NCBI GenBank assembly: GCA_034659995.1
Contig: JAYEIH010000085.1
Span: 1-47,078 of the forward strand
DNA length: 47,078 nt
Source of the DNA: Methanobacteriota archaeon
GTDB lineage: Archaea; Methanobacteriota_B; Thermococci; Methanofastidiosales; B48-G16
Direction: 5' to 3'
Part shown: positions 3,438-19,625 of the stretch, piece by piece
Layout: every line of letters starts with the position of its first letter
Numbering within the stretch: position 1 is the stretch's first letter
Program-made: the position numbers and the translations under genes
Notes under the pieces: generated by a model
Seen by the model: the letters and a program-made list of their open reading frames with translations, nothing else
Told to the model about the DNA's origin: nothing
The model's database searches: none

Positions 3438-6064
3438 TTTTTCACGCCCTGAGCCATCTTCTCAGTTCCTCCTCCTCTTCCAAATTTTTTTATATGCTCA
3501 TCTGCCCTGTATCCTTTCTTAATCGCTTCCTCACCACACATACATACGATATTTTTTCCGTTCGTAAGCACAACAACGGTGTTTTCTTCAGTGAGTGCAG
3601 TGGCAGTTTCTCGCAGTACCTTCGGTCCCCCTTCTATCTCCTGTTTCAGGAACCGGAGCCCATTCTTCTCCTTAAACTCTCCTTCAACCTGCTTCATTTT
3701 CAGCTTCGATATTTCTTCTTTCAAACGGTCTATCTCCTTCCCTCTCTCTTTCCACCCCTCAAAAAACCGTGTGACAGTTTTTGGTATGTTCTCTCGCGTG
3801 ACTCTGAGTATTTTACCAATGCTATCCATTATTTGCTCTGTTCCCTGTACGTACTCAAGCGCCTTCATTCCCGCGGTAAACTCCAATCTCACAACTCCAT
3901 CCTGAATTTTCTCAGATTTCAGGAGCTTAATAAATCCCACCTCGGAGGTGTTATCACAGTGGGTACCACCACACGCCTCCACATCAAAGTTCTCTATGTT
4001 CACAACGCGTATTTCCTTGCCGGGCACTGCACCTCCCTGATACAGCCTGAAACCGTATTTTTTCTCGGCCTCGGTTCTTCCTATGAACTCTTTATATATC
4101 TTCCTTCCCTCAAGAACGATCTTATTTGCCAATCTTTCTATTTCATTAAGTGTTTCTCTGTTCAGCCCCTCATAATGTGTAATATCAAGCCTTGCCTTCT
4201 CTTCTTTTTTTTCTGCTCCCGCCTGCCATATATGGTTTCCCAGCACCTTCCGGGCAGCTCCGTTGATGATATGCGTGGCGGTATGGTGTCTTGTCAAGAT
4301 CAGTCGTCTTTTCCAGTTTATAGTGCCGTGAACGCTCTGTCCTACGGCAAACTCGCCATCTACTTTATGCAACACCACTGCGCCGGCTTTTTTCACGTCA
4401 TAGACTTCATTTCCGTTGAGCACACCGAGATCATTTGCCTGTCCTCCTGACTCTGGATAGAAGGCTGTTCTGTCCAGCACAATCCAGCCATCCTCCACCC
4501 CTATAACCTTGGCCTTGAACTCTTTCATTTTCCAGTCCTTATAGAAGAGCAGCTCTGTTTTTGGATAGTTAAAGCTTTTTTCTTTTTTCTTTTCTTCCAC
4601 GACCTTTTTTTCATGCCTCGAAGCTATCGCAGCGTAAAAGTTTGACGGTATCTCTATATCTTCTCCTCTTTTCTGCGCTCTTTCCCGCAAATCCTCCGGA
4701 GATATGCCGTGAGAATCATAGAGCTCCAATAGTTTATCAGAACTTATTTTTTCCTTTTTTTTGAGTAAGTTCCCTATTATTTTTCCTGATTTTCTTTTCA
4801 TTCTTTTATATTTATCCTTTTCCACAGCAAGTATCTCTTCGATCTCATCCAGGCTCTCCGTTACCTTCGGAAACTCCTTTCTCAAAGAATTGGCATGTTT
4901 CTCAACGATTGTTTCTATCTCGATGTCCCAACCGTTCTTCTCTATGAATCCAAGGGCTCTTCTAAAAATAACCCTCAGATTGTATCCCCCTCCAACATTT
5001 GACGGAAGCGCACCGTCCGATAGGGCAAATAAAAGGGTCCTTGTATGATCGGCAATGCTGTATATCTCTGAGAGCGGAAGAATGATCTCCTTAAGTTCCT
5101 CTGGCTCAGTACCTGTTAGTTTGCCCACCTTTTTCCATACGTTTTCGATATCGTTTACCTCGTCGAGGTTTAAAAGCCCTGCATACGGTAAAAAATCTCG
5201 AATTTTTTCGTTGAAACTATGTCCCGTTTTTTTATAAAGATACTCGCAGAGATCGGGAAAAACGGCATCATACGATGTTTTTGAGGGATTGCAGTACCAT
5301 GCAAACCTCTCCTGCCCTGCACCCATATCCAGTACCTTTGTCTGTAAAGGGGTGAACCCCGCGGGCGTTGCCTCATACATCATATACACCTGGTTCCCAA
5401 GCTCAAGTCCCTTGGAAAAGAACTCCATACAGCATCCGCCGTTTCCTCCTCCTGCCCAGCCATCTTCATGGAAATATAGCTCAGTTTTTGGAATTTTAAG
5501 GCCGTCTCTCAGCCATCTGTATATGTCTTCAAAATATCTCTCCTGATCGTACCGTTCCGAAGGCTCAAAGGCATGCTGTCCAATCATGACAAATCCAGTG
5601 TAATGAGATCCCGTTATACCCACATTGTCGATATCGTTGAATCTCAGTGAAAACTGTGGAACAATCAGCGGATTGGCAGGAGGTTCCACCTCTCCAGAGA
5701 CAACATGAGGCTGAAAATCGTAAATAGATGCGTTGACAAAGTCCACATCCTTTCTCCATCGTGCAACCACGGGATATCGTGGGATAGAGGTATACCCCAT
5801 CTTTTCAAATAAGTTGGAAAACTTTTCCCACACCCCTATGTAATCTAATCGGGTATACGGTTTTTCCCCTATAAACCTGTATTCCCCCTGGCATGCGGGG
5901 TCACCACAGAGCTCCTTTTTTTCTATGCTCCAGAACTGTTTTCCACACTTTTTGCACCGATTTCTCTGGAATCCGTGGGCTCTCAGGGTTTCCACAGCAA
6001 AAAAATCCTCGTACTTTTGGGATGCCCTTTTTCTAAATAGTTCTTTGAGCTCTTTCGTGTCCAT
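3434..6064 (-). CDS. alaS: Alanyl-tRNA synthetase (archaeal type)
   Basis: About 876 aa. It carries an N-terminal CKKCGKQFWS zinc motif, the class II core, the editing-domain HHTATHI...CGGTHC motifs and a C-terminal DHHA1-like region. I prefer ATG 6064 over the track's TTG at 6073. Confidence 0.95.
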   Translation of the reverse strand: MDTKELKELFRKRASQKYEDFFAVETLRAHGFQRNRCKKCGKQFWSIEKKELCGDPACQGEYRFIGEKPYTRLDYIGVWEKFSNLFEKMGYTSIPRYPVVARWRKDVDFVNASIYDFQPHVVSGEVEPPANPLIVPQFSLRFNDIDNVGITGSHYTGFVMIGQHAFEPSERYDQERYFEDIYRWLRDGLKIPKTELYFHEDGWAGGGNGGCCMEFFSKGLELGNQVYMMYEATPAGFTPLQTKVLDMGAGQERFAWYCNPSKTSYDAVFPDLCEYLYKKTGHSFNEKIRDFLPYAGLLNLDEVNDIENVWKKVGKLTGTEPEELKEIILPLSEIYSIADHTRTLLFALSDGALPSNVGGGYNLRVIFRRALGFIEKNGWDIEIETIVEKHANSLRKEFPKVTESLDEIEEILAVEKDKYKRMKRKSGKIIGNLLKKKEKISSDKLLELYDSHGISPEDLRERAQKRGEDIEIPSNFYAAIASRHEKKVVEEKKKEKSFNYPKTELLFYKDWKMKEFKAKVIGVEDGWIVLDRTAFYPESGGQANDLGVLNGNEVYDVKKAGAVVLHKVDGEFAVGQSVHGTINWKRRLILTRHHTATHIINGAARKVLGNHIWQAGAEKKEEKARLDITHYEGLNRETLNEIERLANKIVLEGRKIYKEFIGRTEAEKKYGFRLYQGGAVPGKEIRVVNIENFDVEACGGTHCDNTSEVGFIKLLKSEKIQDGVVRLEFTAGMKALEYVQGTEQIMDSIGKILRVTRENIPKTVTRFFEGWKERGKEIDRLKEEISKLKMKQVEGEFKEKNGLRFLKQEIEGGPKVLRETATALTEENTVVVLTNGKNIVCMCGEEAIKKGYRADEHIKKFGRGGGTEKMAQGVKK

Positions 6065-7211: not shown

Positions 7212-9353
7212 TCACCTGTAGACACTGTATCTTGAGGCATTCTTCTTCACCTTCTTCCAGTTCTTTTTCTGTTCTTCGTCAACAGATGGCATAATCTTCT
7301 TTAATGCGGCAGTAAAATCATCCATTGTCACGCTTTTCATCTTTTTCTTTCCCTCTTTAATAGTTCGTCTCAGGCTGTTCATTCCCGCCTCTCTGCACAG
7401 GGATGCGATATCCGCACCGGAGTAATCTGCTGTTTTCTCTATTAGAGTATCGATATCAACATCTTTTAGCTTCATTTTGTCCGTATGGACCTTAAATATC
7501 TCCTTCCGTCCATCTTTGTCTGGCATCGGTATAAAAATCATCTTTTCAAATCTGCCAGGTCTCAGTAACGCTTTATCTATCAGATCGGGTCTGTTTGTTG
7601 CTCCTATAACTACAACATCCTTGAGTGACGCAATACCATCCAGCTCTGAGAGTATCTGAGCGACAACTCTCTCGGTAATCTGCGTGGCACCTGAACCCCG
7701 TACGCCCGCGATACTGTCTATCTCATCAAAAAATATAATTGATGGTGCTACCTGTCTTGCTCGTGAAAATATCTTTCTCACACCTTTTTCACTTTCACCG
7801 ACCCATTTTGATAGGAGTTCGGGACCTTTAACGGAGATAAAATTTGCATCGCTCTCATTCGCTACTGCCTTTGCAAGGAGCGTCTTACCACAGCCGGGGG
7901 GACCATAGAGCAGAATACCTCTTGGAACCTCTATCCCTCCCTCATCAAAGAGTTCATGATACCTCAGAGGCCATTCCACAGACTCCCTAAGTTCCGTTTG
8001 TACCTCATCCAGTCCGCCAATATCCCCCCAGGTCATCTTTGGTATTTCAATAATGGCTTCTCTCATTGCGGAAGGCTCTATTCTTTTATAGGCGTTGTAA
8101 ACATCTTTCTCTGTGACCTTCAGGTTCTCTATAACATCTTTGGAAAGAACTTCCTCGCTCTCTTTCAGGTCAGGAATTATCCGTCTCAACGCGTTCATTC
8201 CCGCCTCTCTGCACAGCGAAGCAAGATCCGCACCCGAATATCCATGTGCGATATCCGCGTAATGGTCAAGGTCCACATCCTCCAGAGGCATATTTCTTGT
8301 GTGTATCTGAAGAATCTCCTTTCTACCGTTTCTATCGGGCATTCCAATCTCTATCTCCCGATCAAATCTACCCGGTCTTCGCAGTGCTTCGTCCACATCG
8401 CTGGGCCTATTGGTTGCGGCAATAACGACGATATCCCCTCTGGGATCCAAGCCATCCATAATTGTCAGCAGCTGTGAAACAAGCCGTTTCTCAACATCTC
8501 CTGTTACCTCCTCTCTTTTGGGCGCAAGGCTGTCAATTTCGTCAATGAAAACTATACTCGGGGCATTTTCCTTTGCCTGCTCAAAAATCTTTCGCAGATT
8601 TTGTTCGCTCTGCCCATAGAACTTTGACATAAGCTCGGGACCATTGATAACCAAAAAGTTGGACTCTGTCTCATTTGCCACTGCCTTCGCGAGAAGTGTT
8701 TTTCCCGTACCCGGAGGTCCATAGAGCAGAACACCCTTTGGTGGGTTAATTCCCAGTTTCTTGAAGGCCTCCGGATGGTTCATCGGTATCTCAATCATCT
8801 CTCTGACCCGCTCTATCTCTGCCTTCAGCCCACCAACATCCTCATAGCTGACAGCTGTATAACCTCCGCTCACAGGCTGAGGTTTTTTCGATATTTTTAT
8901 CGTTGTTTCCGGTACAACTCTAACAATACCCTTTGGTTTTGCGTTTGTGACGGTGAGCGGAAGTGCATTTCCCATTATACCTATTACAACCACGTTTCCG
9001 TTGACAAATGGCCTGTTAAGGATTTTGTTGTGTACATACGTAATAAACCCCTGATCAAATCGTATCTCCTGGGTTGGGGCGAGTTTTATCTCCTTTGCAG
9101 GTGCAGATTCTACTCTGCTTATCTCTACATTTTCATCTATGCTGACGCCTGCGTTATGCCGCAGAACACCATCTATTCGTATTATACTCCTCTCCTCATT
9201 TGACATCCAGGCAAGCCCCACTGCCTTCTTTTTTCCTTCTATAAGTACAGCATCTCCGGAGCTCAGTCCGAGCTTTTCGAAGACCTCATGATTAATTCGT
9301 ACAATTCCTCTACCATAATCTGATTTACGTGCATCTCTAATCTTTACCTTCAT
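7212..9353 (-). CDS. cdc48: CDC48/VCP-like AAA+ ATPase (two AAA domains)
   Basis: 713 aa. It has an N-terminal CDC48 double-psi barrel (VKVRDA...GRGIVRI) and two Walker A motifs [17 protein letters not shown] / [17 protein letters not shown], each with a Walker B DEID. Confidence 0.95.
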
Positions 9354-9802: not shown

Positions 9803-9829
9803 CTTTAAAAAGGTTTCGGTAAACCTTTT
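9803..9829. promoter_or_regulatory. Regulator promoter overlapped by the perfect palindrome AAAAGGTTT-cggt-AAACCTTTT (9808-9829)
   Basis: The minus strand reads ACCGAAACCTTTTTAAAG (BRE+TATA) 29-37 nt upstream of ATG 9774. The 9+9 bp inverted repeat covers this BRE/TATA, which makes it a candidate operator. Confidence 0.45.
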
Positions 9830-9871
9830 AGTTATTACCTATAAGTTTTGAATAAATTTATAAGATACTGG

Positions 9872-9889
9872 ACCGAAAGGTTTTTAAAT
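9872..9889 (+). promoter_or_regulatory. hsp20 promoter ACCGAAAGGTTTTTAAAT (BRE+TATA)
   Basis: It lies about 45-60 nt upstream of ATG 9933, which has a GAGGTGA Shine-Dalgarno. It matches the regulator promoter read on the other strand at 16 of 18 positions. Confidence 0.45.
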
Positions 9890-9932: not shown

Positions 9933-10367
9933 ATGGATGTTTTTGATGAGATACGAAGAATGCAAAAAGAGATGGACAGAATGTTCGGTGATCTATGCAC
10001 AAAACCCTCTCTTCCGTCAAGAGAGATTAGGCCCGCCAATTACCGAGAACCACTTCTCGATGTCGTTGACAAGGGAAACGAGCTTCTTGTGCAGGTGGAA
10101 CTTCCCGGTGTCAACAGGAATGATATCGAGTTGAACCTTGATGACGACTCGTTAACTATAAAAACCTCAAAAAAGAACGTAGTAACAGAGGAAAAAGAAG
10201 GGTATTTTTATCAAGAAAGGGACTACGCAGGATACTACCGAACGGTGCCACTGCCGATGAGGGTGAACACTGAGGATGTAAAGGCAAAGTACAACAATGG
10301 CATCCTTGAGATAACACTTCCAAAAATATCGGATGAGGTCTCAAAAAAGAAAATCGAAATAGAATAA
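9933..10367 (+). CDS. hsp20: Small heat-shock protein, Hsp20/alpha-crystallin family
   Basis: MDVFDEIRRMQKEMDRMF...DVVDKGNELLVQVELPGVNRNDIELNLDDDSLTI...AKYNNGILEITLPK is a canonical alpha-crystallin domain. ATG 9933 is preceded by GAGGTGA. Confidence 0.92.
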   Translation: MDVFDEIRRMQKEMDRMFGDLCTKPSLPSREIRPANYREPLLDVVDKGNELLVQVELPGVNRNDIELNLDDDSLTIKTSKKNVVTEEKEGYFYQERDYAGYYRTVPLPMRVNTEDVKAKYNNGILEITLPKISDEVSKKKIEIE

Positions 10368-10373
10368 ATGTCC

Positions 10374-10391
10374 TTTTTTTTTCTTTTTCTT
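10374..10391 (+). terminator. Oligo-T tract (T9 C T5 C TT) after hsp20
   Basis: Archaeal terminators are oligo-T runs. This one starts 7 nt after the hsp20 TAA. It may be leaky, because the next gene starts within 15 nt and has no TATA of its own. Confidence 0.35.
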
Positions 10392-10405
10392 ACCAGGTGA
10401 AAAAA

Positions 10406-11551
10406 ATGGAAAATATACAGGCAAAAGAGGTAGTTTCTGAGAATTTTGAGAAAATTGCATACAACACAAGTATAGGGGACGTAATACGGAAGTTTAGGAA
10501 GAGAAAGGTTCTCTATGCATTCAGAGATAAGGAGTTCAAAGGCGTTCTTCTCGACGGAAATGTGATTCGATCCCGTGTTAATCCTAAAACGAAGATAAAA
10601 AAATTTGTCTCTTCCGTGCCAAAGATCTCTCTGGATACGAATCTGGTAAAGATGTCAAAGCTTATGATAGAAAACAACATTAAGAACCTTCCTGTCTTTG
10701 ATAACGGTACAATGGTAGGGGTTGTTGATCAGGATACGATTCTGAAAAGGGTGATAGGAAAGGAGCTTGGTGAAAAGAGAATCCAGGAAGTAATGACTCA
10801 GGAACTTATTACTGTCCATGAGGATGATGTTCTGGCCAAAATAATAAATATATTTCATGAACACGACATATCTCATCTTCCTGTAGTAAATGACAAAGGG
10901 GAGCTCGTAGGCATTGTAAAGATGTTTGATGTGCTGAGAATGATAGCGGCTCCTCTAAAATCGATCGAGGAAGACTCTTACGTGGGAGAAAAACATTCCC
11001 GGCTTGATACTCCTGCCAAAAAAGTAATGAGTACTAGAACAGAGACAATGAAATACAACGCCAAGATAAGGGAAGTAATAAAAAAAATGCTCTCTACGGA
11101 TGCGACTTACATTATTATAATGGATAAGGAGAATATAGCTGGTATTGTAACGGGAAAGGATCTTCTTGAGAAGATAACGGTTCCTAAAAAGGGAAAAGGC
11201 TTCTATATAACCTTCTCAGGGAAGAAAACGATCCAGGATAAAGAAGAAATGCTTGCAAATCTCGAAAAGGTACTGCAGAAAAACGCCAAGATACTAAAAA
11301 GCGGTGATGTTTTTATCTACTTCAAAAAGCTTAAAGAGACCCCCCATGGTAAAAAGGTCTACAACTGCAGAATAAGACTGGGCACAGAAGGTGGGGTCTT
11401 TGTAGCTAAAGACAATGGATTAAGCCCCCAGGATGCCTTTTACTTGGCCCTGGACCACCTGGAAAGAAGACTGTACCGGCATAAGGATATGATGATGAGC
11501 AGATCGTATAGCAAGGAGTTCCTGAGGAATATCGGTCTATGGGAACATTAA
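10406..11551 (+). CDS. Four-CBS (two Bateman modules) protein fused to a C-terminal HPF/RaiA-like domain
   Basis: The CBS motifs include NLPVFDNGTMVGVVDQDTILKRV, HLPVVNDKGELVGIVKMFDVLRM and IIIMDKENIAGIVTGKDLLEKI. The C-terminus FYITFSGKK...VYNCRIRLGTEGGVFVAKDNGLSPQDAFYLALDHLERRLYRHKD resembles Ribosomal_S30AE/HPF. ATG 10406 is preceded by GGTGA; the alternative is GTG 10397. Confidence 0.7.
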   Translation: MENIQAKEVVSENFEKIAYNTSIGDVIRKFRKRKVLYAFRDKEFKGVLLDGNVIRSRVNPKTKIKKFVSSVPKISLDTNLVKMSKLMIENNIKNLPVFDNGTMVGVVDQDTILKRVIGKELGEKRIQEVMTQELITVHEDDVLAKIINIFHEHDISHLPVVNDKGELVGIVKMFDVLRMIAAPLKSIEEDSYVGEKHSRLDTPAKKVMSTRTETMKYNAKIREVIKKMLSTDATYIIIMDKENIAGIVTGKDLLEKITVPKKGKGFYITFSGKKTIQDKEEMLANLEKVLQKNAKILKSGDVFIYFKKLKETPHGKKVYNCRIRLGTEGGVFVAKDNGLSPQDAFYLALDHLERRLYRHKDMMMSRSYSKEFLRNIGLWEH

Positions 11552-11618: not shown

Positions 11619-11876
11619 ATGGTAAACGATGTATTTGAGTATGGGGAACACGAGTCCGGACAGGTAGAGAAAGGTACTAATGGTCCCATTGAGCCGGAAC
11701 CTTCGTTTTCTTCCTGGACATGGATTATTATGGCCGCGCTCATTGTTCTTGTCGCTGTAACTCTCTTTTGGGAGGAAATAAAGACCATAGGGTTTGCGGC
11801 ACTGTCGTCCATGGGGATCTTCACACTGTTTATTATCTTAAACATTGTCAAATTCTTAAAAAAGAAGAAAAAATAG
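11619..11876 (+). CDS. Small hypothetical membrane protein (two predicted TM helices, poly-K tail)
   Basis: 85 aa. WTWIIMAALIVLVAVTLFW and IGFAALSSMGIFTLFIILNIV are the hydrophobic segments, and the protein ends KKKKK. A GAGGT Shine-Dalgarno precedes the ATG. Confidence 0.45.
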   Translation: MVNDVFEYGEHESGQVEKGTNGPIEPEPSFSSWTWIIMAALIVLVAVTLFWEEIKTIGFAALSSMGIFTLFIILNIVKFLKKKKK

Positions 11877-11930: not shown

Positions 11931-13369
11931 CTAAAGGGTATCCTTCTCCTTCCTAATAACTACACGCCATTTTTTAACCCATACACCGGGATGGAATACG
12001 ACAAGCACGGGGAATATCTCCAGCCGTCCGATCCACATATTAAAGATGAGCACAAGCTTTGACCAGAAGGAGAGATTGGAGGAGGTAAGCCCCACGGACA
12101 TCCCCACCGTGCCCTCGGCTGAGGCGACCTCAAAGAGCGTATCGGTAAGCGTTGAGCCCTCGATCCAGAGGATGGTCACAGTGGAGAGTGCCAGTATAAC
12201 CAGATATATCACAAAAAAAGCGGCGACAAACTCTGCCTCTTCCTTTTTTATCTTGATGTTCCTGAATCCAAGAGGAATTTTAGCCTCCTTCGGCAGAATT
12301 GATCGAAAGAACACTACACGGACAAATCCAAACAGAATGAGCAGCCGGAATATCTTGATCCCTCCCGCCGTAGAGCCGGTGCTCCCACCGATGACCATGA
12401 GGATCGTTGTCACAAACTTGTCGGCGTCTGATAAGGAAGCGGTAGGAACGGTATTGAATCCCGTGGTCGTTATCGAGGTTGTTGTCTGAAACATACCTGA
12501 GACGACCGAGTGAGGATCGGGGCCAAAGCTGAGAGAAAAGATCACGGTACCACCCAGGAGAAGCAGCAGCAGCGCCTGCACCTGCGTATCTTTAAAAAAG
12601 TTTCCAATGCCTTTCTTTACCGAGATGTAGTACAGCGGGAAGCTCACAGCACCAAGCACCATGAAAAATGAGACGGTAAGGAGATAAGATCGCTGTGATA
12701 ATGTCCAATGCTCTCAGAAAATCGTGAGAACCCGCCCGTAGGGATCGTGGTGAGGATATGGATGAGGCCGTCAAAAGGACCCATGCCTGCAATGAGGTAC
12801 GCAACAAATCCCACAACAGTGAGAATCAGATAGAGCCAGATTATCATCTTTGCCGTGGCTACGACACTGCCGATAATATTCTCCTCTCCGAACTCGGTCT
12901 CATAGAGTCTGAACGCTGCCTTTCCCGGTCTGAGAAGGATAGCGAGTGAGACAATGATAATCCCCATACCGCCCAACCACTGGGAGTATGCCCGAAAAAA
13001 ATGCAGACTGAGAGGGAGTGTAGCTTCCTCTGCCATGGTAAGGCCGGTGGTGGTAAATCCAGAGATAGCCTCGAAAAATCCGTTTATAGGGGGCATTATT
13101 GGAAGAAATGGAAGGGACCCCAGCAAAGCAAAGAGAAGGTATGTGAGCGCCGTTACAATGAGGGCATCGATAAGCTCGAGGTTCATACGCTGGTTCCAGA
13201 GTCTTCTTCCACCGAATCCCACTGCTACGGTAGAGAGAGACAGTGTTCCGAAGATCCATGAGTAGGTGTACTCGTGAAAAACGAGAGATGCAATAAAGGG
13301 GATAGTTAGTACGATCCCAAAAAGTCCTACTGCGCCGGCAAGATGGTAAATAATCACGGTGCCTTTCAC
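11931..13369 (-). pseudogene. trkH: TrkH/KtrB-type K+ transporter membrane subunit, split by a frameshift
   Basis: The N-terminal half is 12644..13369 (GTG start, ...ISGFTTTGLTM...TIPTGGFSRFSESIGHYHSDLI). The C-terminal half is 11931..12662 (...FMVLGAVSFPLYY...TTTGFNT...GSTAGGIKIFR...AEGTVGMSVG). The two are in different frames and overlap by 19 nt. One missing base near 12675-12685 would fuse them. Confidence 0.8.
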
Positions 13370-14075
13370 CGGTCGAATATGCTAATTTAATCTCATCGAG
13401 CTCTACAGACCTCCTTGTTCTCGTAAGTTCCCCAAAGATTTCCTTTATTTTCTCTGCTCTTTCTTCATCCTGAGCAAGAATGAGAAGTGTGTCATTTTCA
13501 TTCAGTTTTGTATTTTCCTGCGGTATATGCGCAATACCTTCGCGTAAAATTCCAATTGGGAGCGTTTTCTCAGGGAATTCTATCTCCTTCACTCTTTTAT
13601 TAGCCATCTCACCCGGCATGATCTCGATCAGCTGAATCCCTTCTTTAATGAGAAGGGAGAAATCCAGGACATTGTGGCCGTGGAGCAGGTTGATAATCTC
13701 CGTTGTTGCCGAGAGCGTTGGTGAGATCACATGGTCAATGCCGATCTCCTGGCAGGTTGTCCTGAGATCGAGCTTGTTGAGCTTCACGATTACCTTCTGA
13801 ATGGTAAACCGCTTTCCGAGAATGGCGATCACCATATTGAGCGTATCTGATTCGGTGGCTGCAATAAGAACATCTGCCTCCTTGGCTCCAGCCTTTTCAA
13901 GGATCGCCGGCTTGGTGCCATCGCCATGAATGACCAATGCATCAATCTCTTGAGAAAGCGCTTCGCACTTTTCTTCGTCCTTATCAATGAGGACAAGCTC
14001 AAATTCGCTGCGGGAAGAAAGCTCTTCGGCCAGCAAAAGTCCCGTGTCACCTATTCCCGTGATAAGTATTCTCAT
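12900..14075 (-). CDS. trkA: TrkA/KtrA-type K+ transport NAD-binding subunit (RCK N+C); the ORF lacks a stop at the expected end
   Basis: MRILITGIGDTGLLLAEEL (Rossmann GxGxxG) runs through ...LILAQDEERAEKIKEIFGEL, about 220 aa (nt ~13415-14075). After that the frame continues about 170 codons as junk-like sequence out of frame across trkH. A TAG at 13403-13405 sits in the +1 frame. Confidence 0.8.
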   Translation of the reverse strand: MRILITGIGDTGLLLAEELSSRSEFELVLIDKDEEKCEALSQEIDALVIHGDGTKPAILEKAGAKEADVLIAATESDTLNMVIAILGKRFTIQKVIVKLNKLDLRTTCQEIGIDHVISPTLSATTEIINLLHGHNVLDFSLLIKEGIQLIEIMPGEMANKRVKEIEFPEKTLPIGILREGIAHIPQENTKLNENDTLLILAQDEERAEKIKEIFGELTRTRRSVELDEIKLAYSTGERHRDYLPSCRRSRTFWDRTNYPLYCISRFSRVHLLMDLRNTVSLYRSSGIRWKKTLEPAYEPRAYRCPHCNGAHIPSLCFAGVPSISSNNAPYKRIFRGYLWIYHHRPYHGRGSYTPSQSAFFSGILPVVGRYGDYHCLTRYPSQTGKGSVQTL

Positions 14076-17110: not shown

Positions 17111-17216
17111 CAAGAAAATTGCTTAGCTCGTATAAAAAATTTTACCAGTAAAAATATGCGGGGCGAAAATGAGCTTATTGCGGTAAGGTCATTCTCTCAC
17201 GCACGAACGTAGTGAG

Positions 17217-18026
<810 letters not shown>

Positions 18027-19503: not shown

Positions 19504-19540
19504 ATGATCTCACCTACATAACTTTTTTTTGTATGTACAG

Positions 19541-19625
19541 CGCCGGGGAAGGGATTTGAACCCTCGTTCTCCAAAGGAGAACGAGCTCTCCAGGCTCGCG
19601 CCTTTCCAGTCTCGGCAACCCCGGC
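19541..19625 (-). tRNA. tRNA-Ser (anticodon GGA), type II, no encoded CCA
   Basis: Sequence GCCGGGGTTGCCGAGACTGGAAAGGCGCGAGCCTGGAGAGCTCGTTCTCCTTTGGAGAACGAGGGTTCAAATCCCTTCCCCGGCG. Acceptor GCCGGGG/CCCCGGC, anticodon stem CGAGC/GCTCG with loop CTGGAGA, a 6-bp variable-arm stem, and discriminator G. Confidence 0.9.

Follow-up and report, generated by a model that had tools for sequence, protein, structure and literature searches.

The window analysed here covers positions 1 to 47,078 of contig JAYEIH010000085.1 (assembly GCA_034659995.1), a 47,078-nucleotide (nt) stretch with 42% G+C from an uncultured Methanobacteriota archaeon. It contains a group of four genes in which a small winged helix-turn-helix (wHTH) regulator and a Cdc48/VCP-type ATPase are encoded on one strand, and a small heat-shock protein and a protein of 381 amino acids (aa) on the other. 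The last of these genes, called hibA below, is the main subject of this report. Its product combines four CBS motifs with a C-terminal domain that resembles the ribosome hibernation factors HPF and RaiA. We conclude, with a probability of roughly 0.88, that the gene is orthologous to that of HibA, a ribosome hibernation factor of archaea that is also known as AHA. The features of the locus are collected in Table 1.

Table 1. Genes and sequence features of the hibA locus, in window coordinates (BRE, B recognition element; ORF, open reading frame; PTC, peptidyl-transferase centre; E, expectation value)
Feature	Positions	Strand	Basis and remarks
cdc48, gene for a Cdc48/VCP-type double AAA+ ATPase	7212..9353	-	translation with two AAA modules
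wHTH regulator gene, 138 aa	9358..9774	-	divergent from hsp20, 4 nt upstream of cdc48; weak Pfam matches to HTH_20, MarR_2 and HTH_5
Candidate divergent promoter region	9804..9888		inverted pair of 17-nt BRE/TATA-like blocks, TTTAAAAAGGTTTCGGT at 9804-9820 and ACCGAAAGGTTTTTAAA at 9872-9888
hsp20, small heat-shock protein gene	9933..10367	+	Pfam HSP20, E 2.4e-18; directly upstream of hibA
T-rich tract (T9, C, T5, C, TT)	10374..10391	+	in the hsp20-hibA spacer; a candidate for an archaeal terminator or attenuator
Shine-Dalgarno-like AGGTGA	10395..10400	+	5 nt before ATG 10406; read from sequence
hibA/AHA-family gene	10406..11551	+	381 aa plus stop codon; ORF listing, Pfam, PDB match, orthologues in archaeal metagenome-assembled genomes
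CBS tetrad, two Bateman modules, residues 1-258	10406..11179	+	Pfam, AlphaFold2 model, Foldseek; predicted large-subunit and adenine-nucleotide binder
Extended CBS3 loop, residues 184-201, LKSIEEDSYVGEKHSRLD	10955..11008	+	corresponds to 'loop 3' of AHA and to the 'PTC loop' of HibA
C-terminal HPF/RaiA-like (Ribosomal_S30AE) domain	11198..11530	+	Pfam, profile, models, Foldseek; predicted to lie in the 30S mRNA/tRNA channel
C-terminal tail, residues 376-381, NIGLWEH	11531..11548	+	follows the long last helix; model confidence low

According to the ORF listing, the hibA reading frame could begin at GTG 10397 or at ATG 10406. The ATG is the likely start codon because the AGGTGA element precedes it at a distance of 5 nt, the GTG sits within this same element, and the layout is conserved. 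Specifically, GGTGA occurs at the same position in the related loci L001, L003 and L004, and an arrangement of a T-rich tract followed by GGTGA-N5-6-ATGGAAAA is common to four related loci. An earlier note, drawn from the raw sequence of this stretch, had placed an HPF/RaiA-like domain at residues 268-364. The region was correct, but it had been numbered from the GTG and corresponds to residues 265-361 when counted from the ATG. The peptide quoted in support of that domain, FYITFSGKKTIQDKEEML...LERRLYRHKD, is found exactly in the translation.

The N-terminal two thirds of the protein carry the four CBS motifs that had been read from the sequence, which Pfam recovers as four stretches (E 4e-33). 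A full-length AlphaFold2 model, with a mean predicted local distance difference test (pLDDT) score of 79.4, folds residues 1-258 into four beta-alpha-beta-beta-alpha CBS units, with low confidence confined to loop 185-197 and the tail. When this model was searched with Foldseek, only CBS tetrads were returned, with template modelling (TM) scores of 0.77-0.83 when normalised to the target. The best match was the ribosome-bound factor SriA (9znf_4, E 7e-23), followed by AMPK-gamma, Dri (9e6q) and MJ1225, and no HibA entry was among the 50 matches listed from a fold library extending to 2026-04-08. Both CBS3 (G169..D175) and CBS4 (G246..D252) have a G-h-h-x-x-x-D motif that is invariant in 10 diverse homologues, and that of CBS4 has the canonical form GIVTGKD. 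The CBS3/CBS4 interface is predicted from these motifs to be a site for AMP, ADP or ATP, which it probably binds.

CBS3 also carries an extended loop, which is present in all 10 of the aligned homologues. In the window protein it aligns without gaps to residues 190-207 of HibA from Pyrococcus abyssi, and the sequence G-E-K is conserved between the two. Residues E195 and K196 are the counterparts of E201 and K202, which contact the PTC in the P. abyssi protein. The low pLDDT at positions 185-197 is expected for a loop that becomes ordered only when ribosome-bound.

The C-terminal domain scores above the Pfam gathering score for Ribosomal_S30AE (PF02482, residues 279-361; 25.6 bits versus 23.7 bits) when the full protein is searched, and reaches 27.5 bits (E 5e-6) when the last 117 aa are searched alone. 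Because the CBS module dominates the fold-search score of the full-length protein, the C-terminal 123 aa were modelled separately (pLDDT 80.2). Secondary structure elements predicted for this part of the protein in the full-length model are a beta strand at 266-271, a helix at 279-297, beta strands at 300-311, 317-327 and 330-338, and a long last helix at 341-375, which is formed in both models. The best 28 Foldseek matches of the C-terminal model in the PDB are all HPF, RaiA, pY or PSRP1 proteins (E 2e-6 to 4e-4; TM-scores, normalised to the target, up to 0.75). This agrees with the fold that the earlier note had proposed for the last 100 or so residues, and the reading thereby survives the profile and structure check that the note had named as able to refute it.

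A profile built from eight such C-terminal domains gave a consistent result. Among PDB sequences it matched HibA (E 1.4e-25) and 9l96 (E 3.5e-10), and then about a dozen bacterial HPF/RaiA chains with E between 0.003 and 0.5. Against 1.84 billion representative proteins it recovered 715 clusters at E <= 1e-3. Among the 149 listed matches that were new to the analysis, 95 are at least 340 aa long, and the domain is C-terminal in most of the long proteins listed. One short homologue, P0022 (118 aa), is near-identical to the C-terminal domain of P0013 (385 aa), the HibA homologue encoded at locus L006. It may be a gene call cut short; alternatively, it could be a free-standing HPF/RaiA-like protein that recently lost its CBS module, as the description of HibA proposes for the origin of such proteins (PMC13324472).

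HibA has been described from P. abyssi (PAB0961, Q9UYR4) and Thermococcus barophilus (Madru et al., Nat Commun 2026; PMC13324472), with structures 9SR9-9SRF and 9T7H deposited in the PDB. Among them, 9SR9 is the ATP complex of the protein, in which the P. abyssi factor was solved on the 70S ribosome. In the published structures, the C-terminal domain occupies the 30S subunit's mRNA/tRNA channel, and its long last helix and tail reach toward the mRNA exit and contact uS7, uS11 and eS28. The CBS module adopts three positions on the 50S subunit, and loop 190-207 enters the PTC. The module binds AMP, ADP and ATP with dissociation constants of 12, 65 and 113 uM, respectively. HibA inhibits translation, and its deletion in T. 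barophilus results in a smaller pool of 70S ribosomes and late recovery from stationary phase (PMC13324472). The same family was reported as AHA from Haloferax volcanii in an independent preprint, in which two AMP molecules occupy CBS3/CBS4, a relationship to AMPK-gamma was noted, and the deletion phenotype again concerns recovery from stationary phase (PMC12934967). Binding to 30S and 70S particles and inhibition of translation have been demonstrated for both the P. abyssi and the H. volcanii proteins, and it is from these two that calorimetric and cryo-electron microscopy data on nucleotide binding come (PMC13324472, PMC12934967).

Full-length homology to this family was evident from a sequence search of the PDB. 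The best match was 9sr9_H, a chain of 392 aa deposited as 'Dehydrogenase', which aligns from residue 2 to 391 with residues 2-379 of the window protein (E 1.4e-47), and a second two-domain match was 9l96_a (406 aa, E 5e-30). That chain H of 9SR9 is P. abyssi HibA follows from the data-availability section of the paper and from the agreement of 81 of 81 residue numbers in its contact table. Ten ribosome-contacting residues of P. abyssi HibA have conserved counterparts in the window protein (F266, Y267, Y305, E311, R324, K335, R354, Y368, K370 and F372), among which Y368, K370 and F372 of the last helix correspond to Y380, K382 and F384. The P. abyssi HPF-like domain bears two archaea-specific insertions, at residues 283-285 and 324-330. 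The region of the second is free of gaps in the alignment (TPHGKKV, residues 312-318), and, as in HibA, it separates strands two and three of the HPF fold. These insertions are not essential for function, because a published variant lacking both still inhibited translation. The two proteins also share a tetrad of CBS motifs about 260-270 aa long, its short linker to the HPF/RaiA-like domain, and a C-terminus containing LW (ELWR in P. abyssi), the last of which is found in close relatives as well.

The window protein therefore carries the testable features of the HibA/AHA family, namely four CBS motifs in tandem, an HPF fold at the C-terminus, end-to-end homology to a characterised member, the PTC loop and the long last helix. 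Domain content, fold, homology over the full length and synteny were each established directly in this study. Proteins 70-75% identical to it are encoded in metagenome-assembled genomes labelled 'Methanomicrobia archaeon' and 'Thermococci archaeon' and on environmental contigs, and there are many more distant homologues with 24-34% identity. Public records name relatives of the gene simply 'CBS domain-containing protein', for which a HibA/AHA assignment can now be made. By the same homology, the idea of an adenine-nucleotide-linked hibernation factor in this archaeon has held up well. Two other proposals of the earlier note have not. HPF-family proteins are not confined to bacteria and plastids, given that one survey reports HibA/AHA from 47% of 4026 archaeal genomes (PMC13324472) and another from 2,723 of 6,968 archaeal species (PMC12934967). 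Nor is the architecture new, as a preprint of October 2025 had described it before the Nat Commun paper of April 2026 (PMC13324472), and the gene is now a member of a family published in 2025-2026.

Comparison with other ribosome-associated factors helps to delimit this assignment. AHA likewise has four CBS motifs related to AMPK-gamma, to which the CBS model of the window protein has a strong match, together with an HPF domain and a loop 3 that enters the PTC. The haloarchaeal protein is more distant, however, and this comparison is one with its published description rather than its sequence. In the window protein, CBS4 alone has a motif that is canonical throughout. In contrast to bacterial and plastid HPF, RaiA (YfiA, pY) and PSRP1, the S30AE domain here forms the C-terminal half of a two-module protein, its last helix is much longer, an extra loop lies between two strands, and Pfam detects no dimerisation domain of the kind found in long HPF. 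By analogy with HibA, the archaeal factor would clamp 70S ribosomes rather than form 100S dimers. We considered whether the protein might be a bacterial-type HPF/RaiA proper, and rejected this assignment given the 260 aa of CBS sequence that precede S30AE, the lack of any other Pfam domain, and a subthreshold score to the NCBIfam model yfiA (19.4 versus 40.9 bits). SriA-D of Methanosarcina acetivorans, ARC-A/P of Methanolobus and Dri of Thermoproteota are hibernation factors made of one or two CBS tetrads, and among them (SriA and Dri) are the closest structural matches to the CBS tetrad of the window protein. They are also ribosome binders, some of them responsive to adenine nucleotides. These factors lack an HPF/RaiA domain, and they mostly do not co-occur with HibA according to published surveys (PMC13324472, PMC12934967). 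Membership in this group was likewise rejected, since the window protein has an HPF-like domain and its sequence matches to the Sri chains cover only the CBS region (residues 21-255 in the case of 9znf_4).

The genes beside hibA are those of a known type of heat-shock locus. In the Phr/HSR1 clusters of Pyrococcus furiosus and Archaeoglobus fulgidus, a small wHTH regulator is located next to cdc48, with hsp20 alongside (PMC5852551). The window cluster has the same gene content, and differs in also carrying hibA. Its regulator occupies the position of the Phr/HSR1-type heat-shock regulators, although homology to them could not be demonstrated by sequence. Searches with the single sequence and with a 5-sequence profile gave only generic wHTH matches in the PDB, and no solved Phr chain was among them.

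This gene arrangement recurs. The four-gene block of regulator, cdc48, hsp20 and hibA is present in all 11 window-clade loci that have upstream sequence. Linkage is also observed in other HibA lineages whose proteins are 27-34% identical to that of the window. At locus L006, a regulator (26% identity, E 5e-22) is divergent from hsp20, which is followed by an M50-like gene, cdc48 and hibA, with the last two genes overlapping by 23 nt. At L009 the regulator is again divergent from hsp20, followed by cdc48 and then, after a gap of 4 nt, by hibA. In L020, L021 and L023, cdc48 is located directly upstream of hibA, with hsp20 further upstream in the first two (the L023 locus ends early), and the cdc48 stop codon and hibA start codon of L020 overlap as ATGA. 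The cdc48 homologues directly upstream of hibA in L006, L009, L020 and L021 show 55-57% identity. In total, hibA is found directly downstream of hsp20, cdc48 or both in at least four divergent HibA lineages. Linkage to hsp20 or cdc48 was not seen at the HibA loci L007, L008, L024, L025, L028, L034, L035 and L040. The last of these is a Thermococcales locus (GCA_012027415.1) that served as a stand-in for that of P. abyssi, to whose HibA its product (P0039) is 82% identical; its hibA is solitary, whereas the window gene lies downstream of hsp20.

Conserved synteny of this kind supports placing hibA among the heat-shock genes, which also agrees with the published control of hibA by Phr in Thermococcales (PMC13324472). 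A tie to heat-shock regulation is thus a further trait that the window gene has in common with known HibA. Keyword searches of the main text of both papers on the family (PMC13324472, PMC12934967) gave no mention of a physical linkage between hibA and heat-shock genes. This linkage is therefore possibly new, and may represent a small addition to published knowledge.

In two loci of one lineage, the cluster is extended by functions in protein and RNA turnover. The hsp20-cdc48-hibA arrays of L009 (6626-9192) and L010 (2230-4796) are followed on the same strand by an ORF of 88 aa, a proteasome subunit gene, and a gene for an aCPSF1-like ribonuclease with beta-CASP and KH domains.

The spacer between hsp20 and hibA bears on how hibA is transcribed. 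It is 38 nt long (hsp20 stop codon at 10365-10367, hibA start at 10406), exactly as had been counted before, and consists of T9 and T5 runs (10374-10388) followed by the Shine-Dalgarno element. A T-rich tract is retained in the hsp20-hibA spacer of four loci, even though the spacer varies in length from about 23 to 65 nt. Oligo-T is the usual termination signal of archaea, and runs of T are also found on the sense strand after cdc48 (T8), hibA (T6) and mgtC (T9) in the window. The tract therefore argues for termination or attenuation, and not for plain co-transcription. The earlier suggestion that hibA is part of the heat-shock transcription unit is thus only partly sustained, in that the linkage to heat-shock genes is conserved but the oligo-T points to the end or the attenuation of the hsp20 transcript. 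On present evidence, the arrangement is best read as a bicistronic hsp20-hibA unit with a leaky terminator or attenuator.

Upstream of the regulator and hsp20, the two 17-nt blocks TTTAAAAAGGTTTCGGT and ACCGAAAGGTTTTTAAA are both conserved in L001, L003 and L004. Judging from their position, they would represent two promoters of the BRE/TATA type in mirror image, and an operator for the heat-shock regulator, if there is one, probably lies within this region. A palindrome overlapping the first block (AAAGGTTT-N4-AAACCTTT, 9809-9828) was evaluated as such an operator and rejected. Two matches were reached in 14 of 100 shuffled sequences, which is not significant, and the 8-mer proves to be the junction of the BRE-like and TATA-like strings in the two divergent promoter-like blocks. 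Moreover, the same string, AAAGGTTTAAAT, is the likely hibA promoter in the Thermococcales locus, which weighs against reading the palindrome as an operator. At L040 itself (5954-5983), an imperfect 30-bp palindrome, TTTAAATTATTGGGCGCCCTAATAATAAAA, overlaps both a TATA-like box and the site where transcription of the solitary hibA is expected to begin. This palindrome is a candidate repressor operator, and is possibly the Phr site implied by the literature.

Several observations weigh against the orthology of the window protein with HibA, or against the function that this orthology would imply. Identity to P. abyssi HibA is only 28% in a global alignment, and the region of insertion 1 is 3 aa shorter. 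At positions that contact the ribosome, residues of the C-terminal domain are similar in 31 of 53 cases (58%) compared with 27 of 65 (42%) elsewhere, which is not significant (Fisher p ~0.1), and those of the N-terminal module show no enrichment (12 of 28 versus 134 of 241). P. abyssi Y195, which stacks on A2834, has no aligned Tyr, as the loop tyrosine of the window protein (Y192) is displaced by three positions. The CBS3 motif reads GIVKMFD, with Lys at a position where the canonical ribose-phosphate motif of CBS domains carries Ser or Thr. Furthermore, nucleotides left the placement of HibA on the ribosome visibly unchanged (PMC13324472).

One alternative is that the gene encodes an ordinary CBS regulator, such as a transcription factor like HhpR or a metabolic sensor, whose resemblance to HPF is due to chance and which has no function on the ribosome. 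It might be favoured by the single-sequence S30AE score, which is just 2-4 bits or so above the cut-off, by the low yfiA score, and by the uninformative annotation of the relatives. The end-to-end match to ribosome-bound HibA nevertheless includes the C-terminal domain and tail, HPF-family proteins alone occupy the top of the C-terminal fold search, and the domain recurs in 715 clusters, where it mostly forms the C-terminal end of proteins some 380 aa long. Among NCBIfam models, generic CBS families match far below every cut-off, and HhpR, a CBS-tetrad transcription factor (NF053603), scores 40 bits against a cut-off of 520 with only two CBS motifs matched, on which basis identity with HhpR was rejected. 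We regard this alternative as very improbable and close to refuted. A homologue of HibA could also serve mainly in proteotoxic stress together with Hsp20 and Cdc48, either by parking ribosomes during heat shock or by acting on stalled ribosomes with Cdc48, or it could be titrated by partners other than the ribosome. Such roles would fit the linkage to hsp20, cdc48 and a dedicated regulator in at least four lineages, the Phr control in Thermococcales, the lack of a clear effect of nucleotides on HibA-ribosome complexes, and pull-downs that tie HibA to DNA replication and recombination proteins (PMC13324472). They differ from hibernation in trigger rather than in mechanism, however, and the ribosome-binding modules of the window protein are intact. 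In T. barophilus and H. volcanii, moreover, it is the recovery from stationary phase that deletion affects, and many HibA loci (the eight listed above) show no link to these genes. We consider a predominantly proteotoxic role to be unlikely. Orthology with HibA as a hibernation factor is thus retained.

A different question is whether hibA, as a member of this family, is transcribed alone. The T9 and T5 runs after hsp20 may terminate transcription, which is a further point against the bicistronic reading, and the fact that T runs of at least six nucleotides also follow cdc48, hibA and mgtC is consistent with T tracts marking transcript ends. In this case hibA would have its own promoter in the 3' end of hsp20, where a BRE/TATA-like sequence, CGAAA followed by AGAATAAA, overlaps the hsp20 stop codon (10353-10368) about 25-30 nt before the Shine-Dalgarno element. 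The stand-alone hibA of L040 has a BRE/TATA-like promoter of its own. The candidate in the window was not accepted, because neither its sequence nor its spacing is conserved: the string is preserved no further than coding requires, L003 has GATAAAAGTGGAGTAA at this site, and an insertion of 26 nt in L001 would shift it away from the start site. The invariable hsp20-hibA pairing in the 11 clade loci also speaks against solitary transcription, as do the hsp20-cdc48-hibA arrays of three other lineages, whose genes are separated by 4 nt (L009) or overlap (L006 and L020). Transcription of hibA alone is a serious but doubtful possibility, and it would change only the regulation of the gene, which would then adjoin the heat-shock unit without belonging to it. 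The bicistronic unit with a leaky terminator or attenuator is still preferred.

A mechanism for the window protein can be proposed on the model of HibA, in that its binding to ribosomes and nucleotides, and its role in the cell, are inferred from homologues that share 28% identity. As in the solved homologues, the long last helix and tail of the C-terminal domain would run toward the mRNA exit, the CBS tetrad would be positioned on the 50S side above the tRNA sites, and the CBS3 loop with its GEK motif could reach the PTC. With both modules in contact with the ribosome, a single polypeptide would therefore clamp the two subunits. Such a clamp would block the binding of mRNA and tRNA and keep idle 70S ribosomes intact under stress. 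Because CBS3/CBS4 probably binds AMP, ADP or ATP, the factor may also be tied to the energy status of the cell. This 'sensor' step is hypothetical, since nucleotides did not visibly alter HibA-ribosome complexes. Expression of hibA would most likely accompany the heat-shock response, through partial read-through of the T-rich attenuator after hsp20.

An extension of this model, which we put forward tentatively and at somewhat less than even odds, is that hibA is an integral and possibly ancient part of an archaeal hsp20-cdc48 heat-shock operon rather than only an energy-stress gene. In several divergent lineages the gene follows hsp20 or would be coupled in translation to cdc48. The oligo-T attenuator of the window clade would then set the ratio of Hsp20 to HibA, and heat or proteotoxic stress would silence and protect ribosomes by way of the chaperone regulon. 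In Thermococcales the link would be retained at the level of the regulon only, through Phr.

Other features of the window were recorded as well. An ORF of 85 aa (11619-11876, + strand) begins about 70 nt downstream of hibA and may encode a small membrane protein, as the C-terminal half of the product is hydrophobic. It has no Pfam match, occurs at the same position in 10 window-clade loci at 41-45% identity, and shows no homology to the 88-aa ORF that L009 carries after hibA. Further downstream, on the - strand, trkH is split into two overlapping ORFs, of which 12644-13369 corresponds to positions 59-221 of the TrkH profile and 11931-12662 to positions 228-491. The upstream trkA ORF, which starts at 14075, has TrkA_N and TrkA_C in its first 215 or so residues and continues over the beginning of trkH as far as 12900. 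These observations suggest that trkH/trkA (11931-14075) is frameshifted, by either pseudogenisation or assembly errors. Scans of the window with Rfam and ARAGORN found nothing near the hibA locus, and their only matches were genes for tRNA-Leu(GAG) at 17216-17301 and tRNA-Ser(GGA) at 19540-19625, both on the - strand.

The assignment allows a HibA/AHA function to be proposed for an uncultured archaeal lineage. It also shows that the earlier note had drawn from raw sequence an architecture whose discovery had needed cryo-electron microscopy. The recurrent linkage of hibA to hsp20 and cdc48 offers a simple test of when HibA is deployed. If this linkage holds more widely, ribosome hibernation would be part of the core heat-shock response of archaea.

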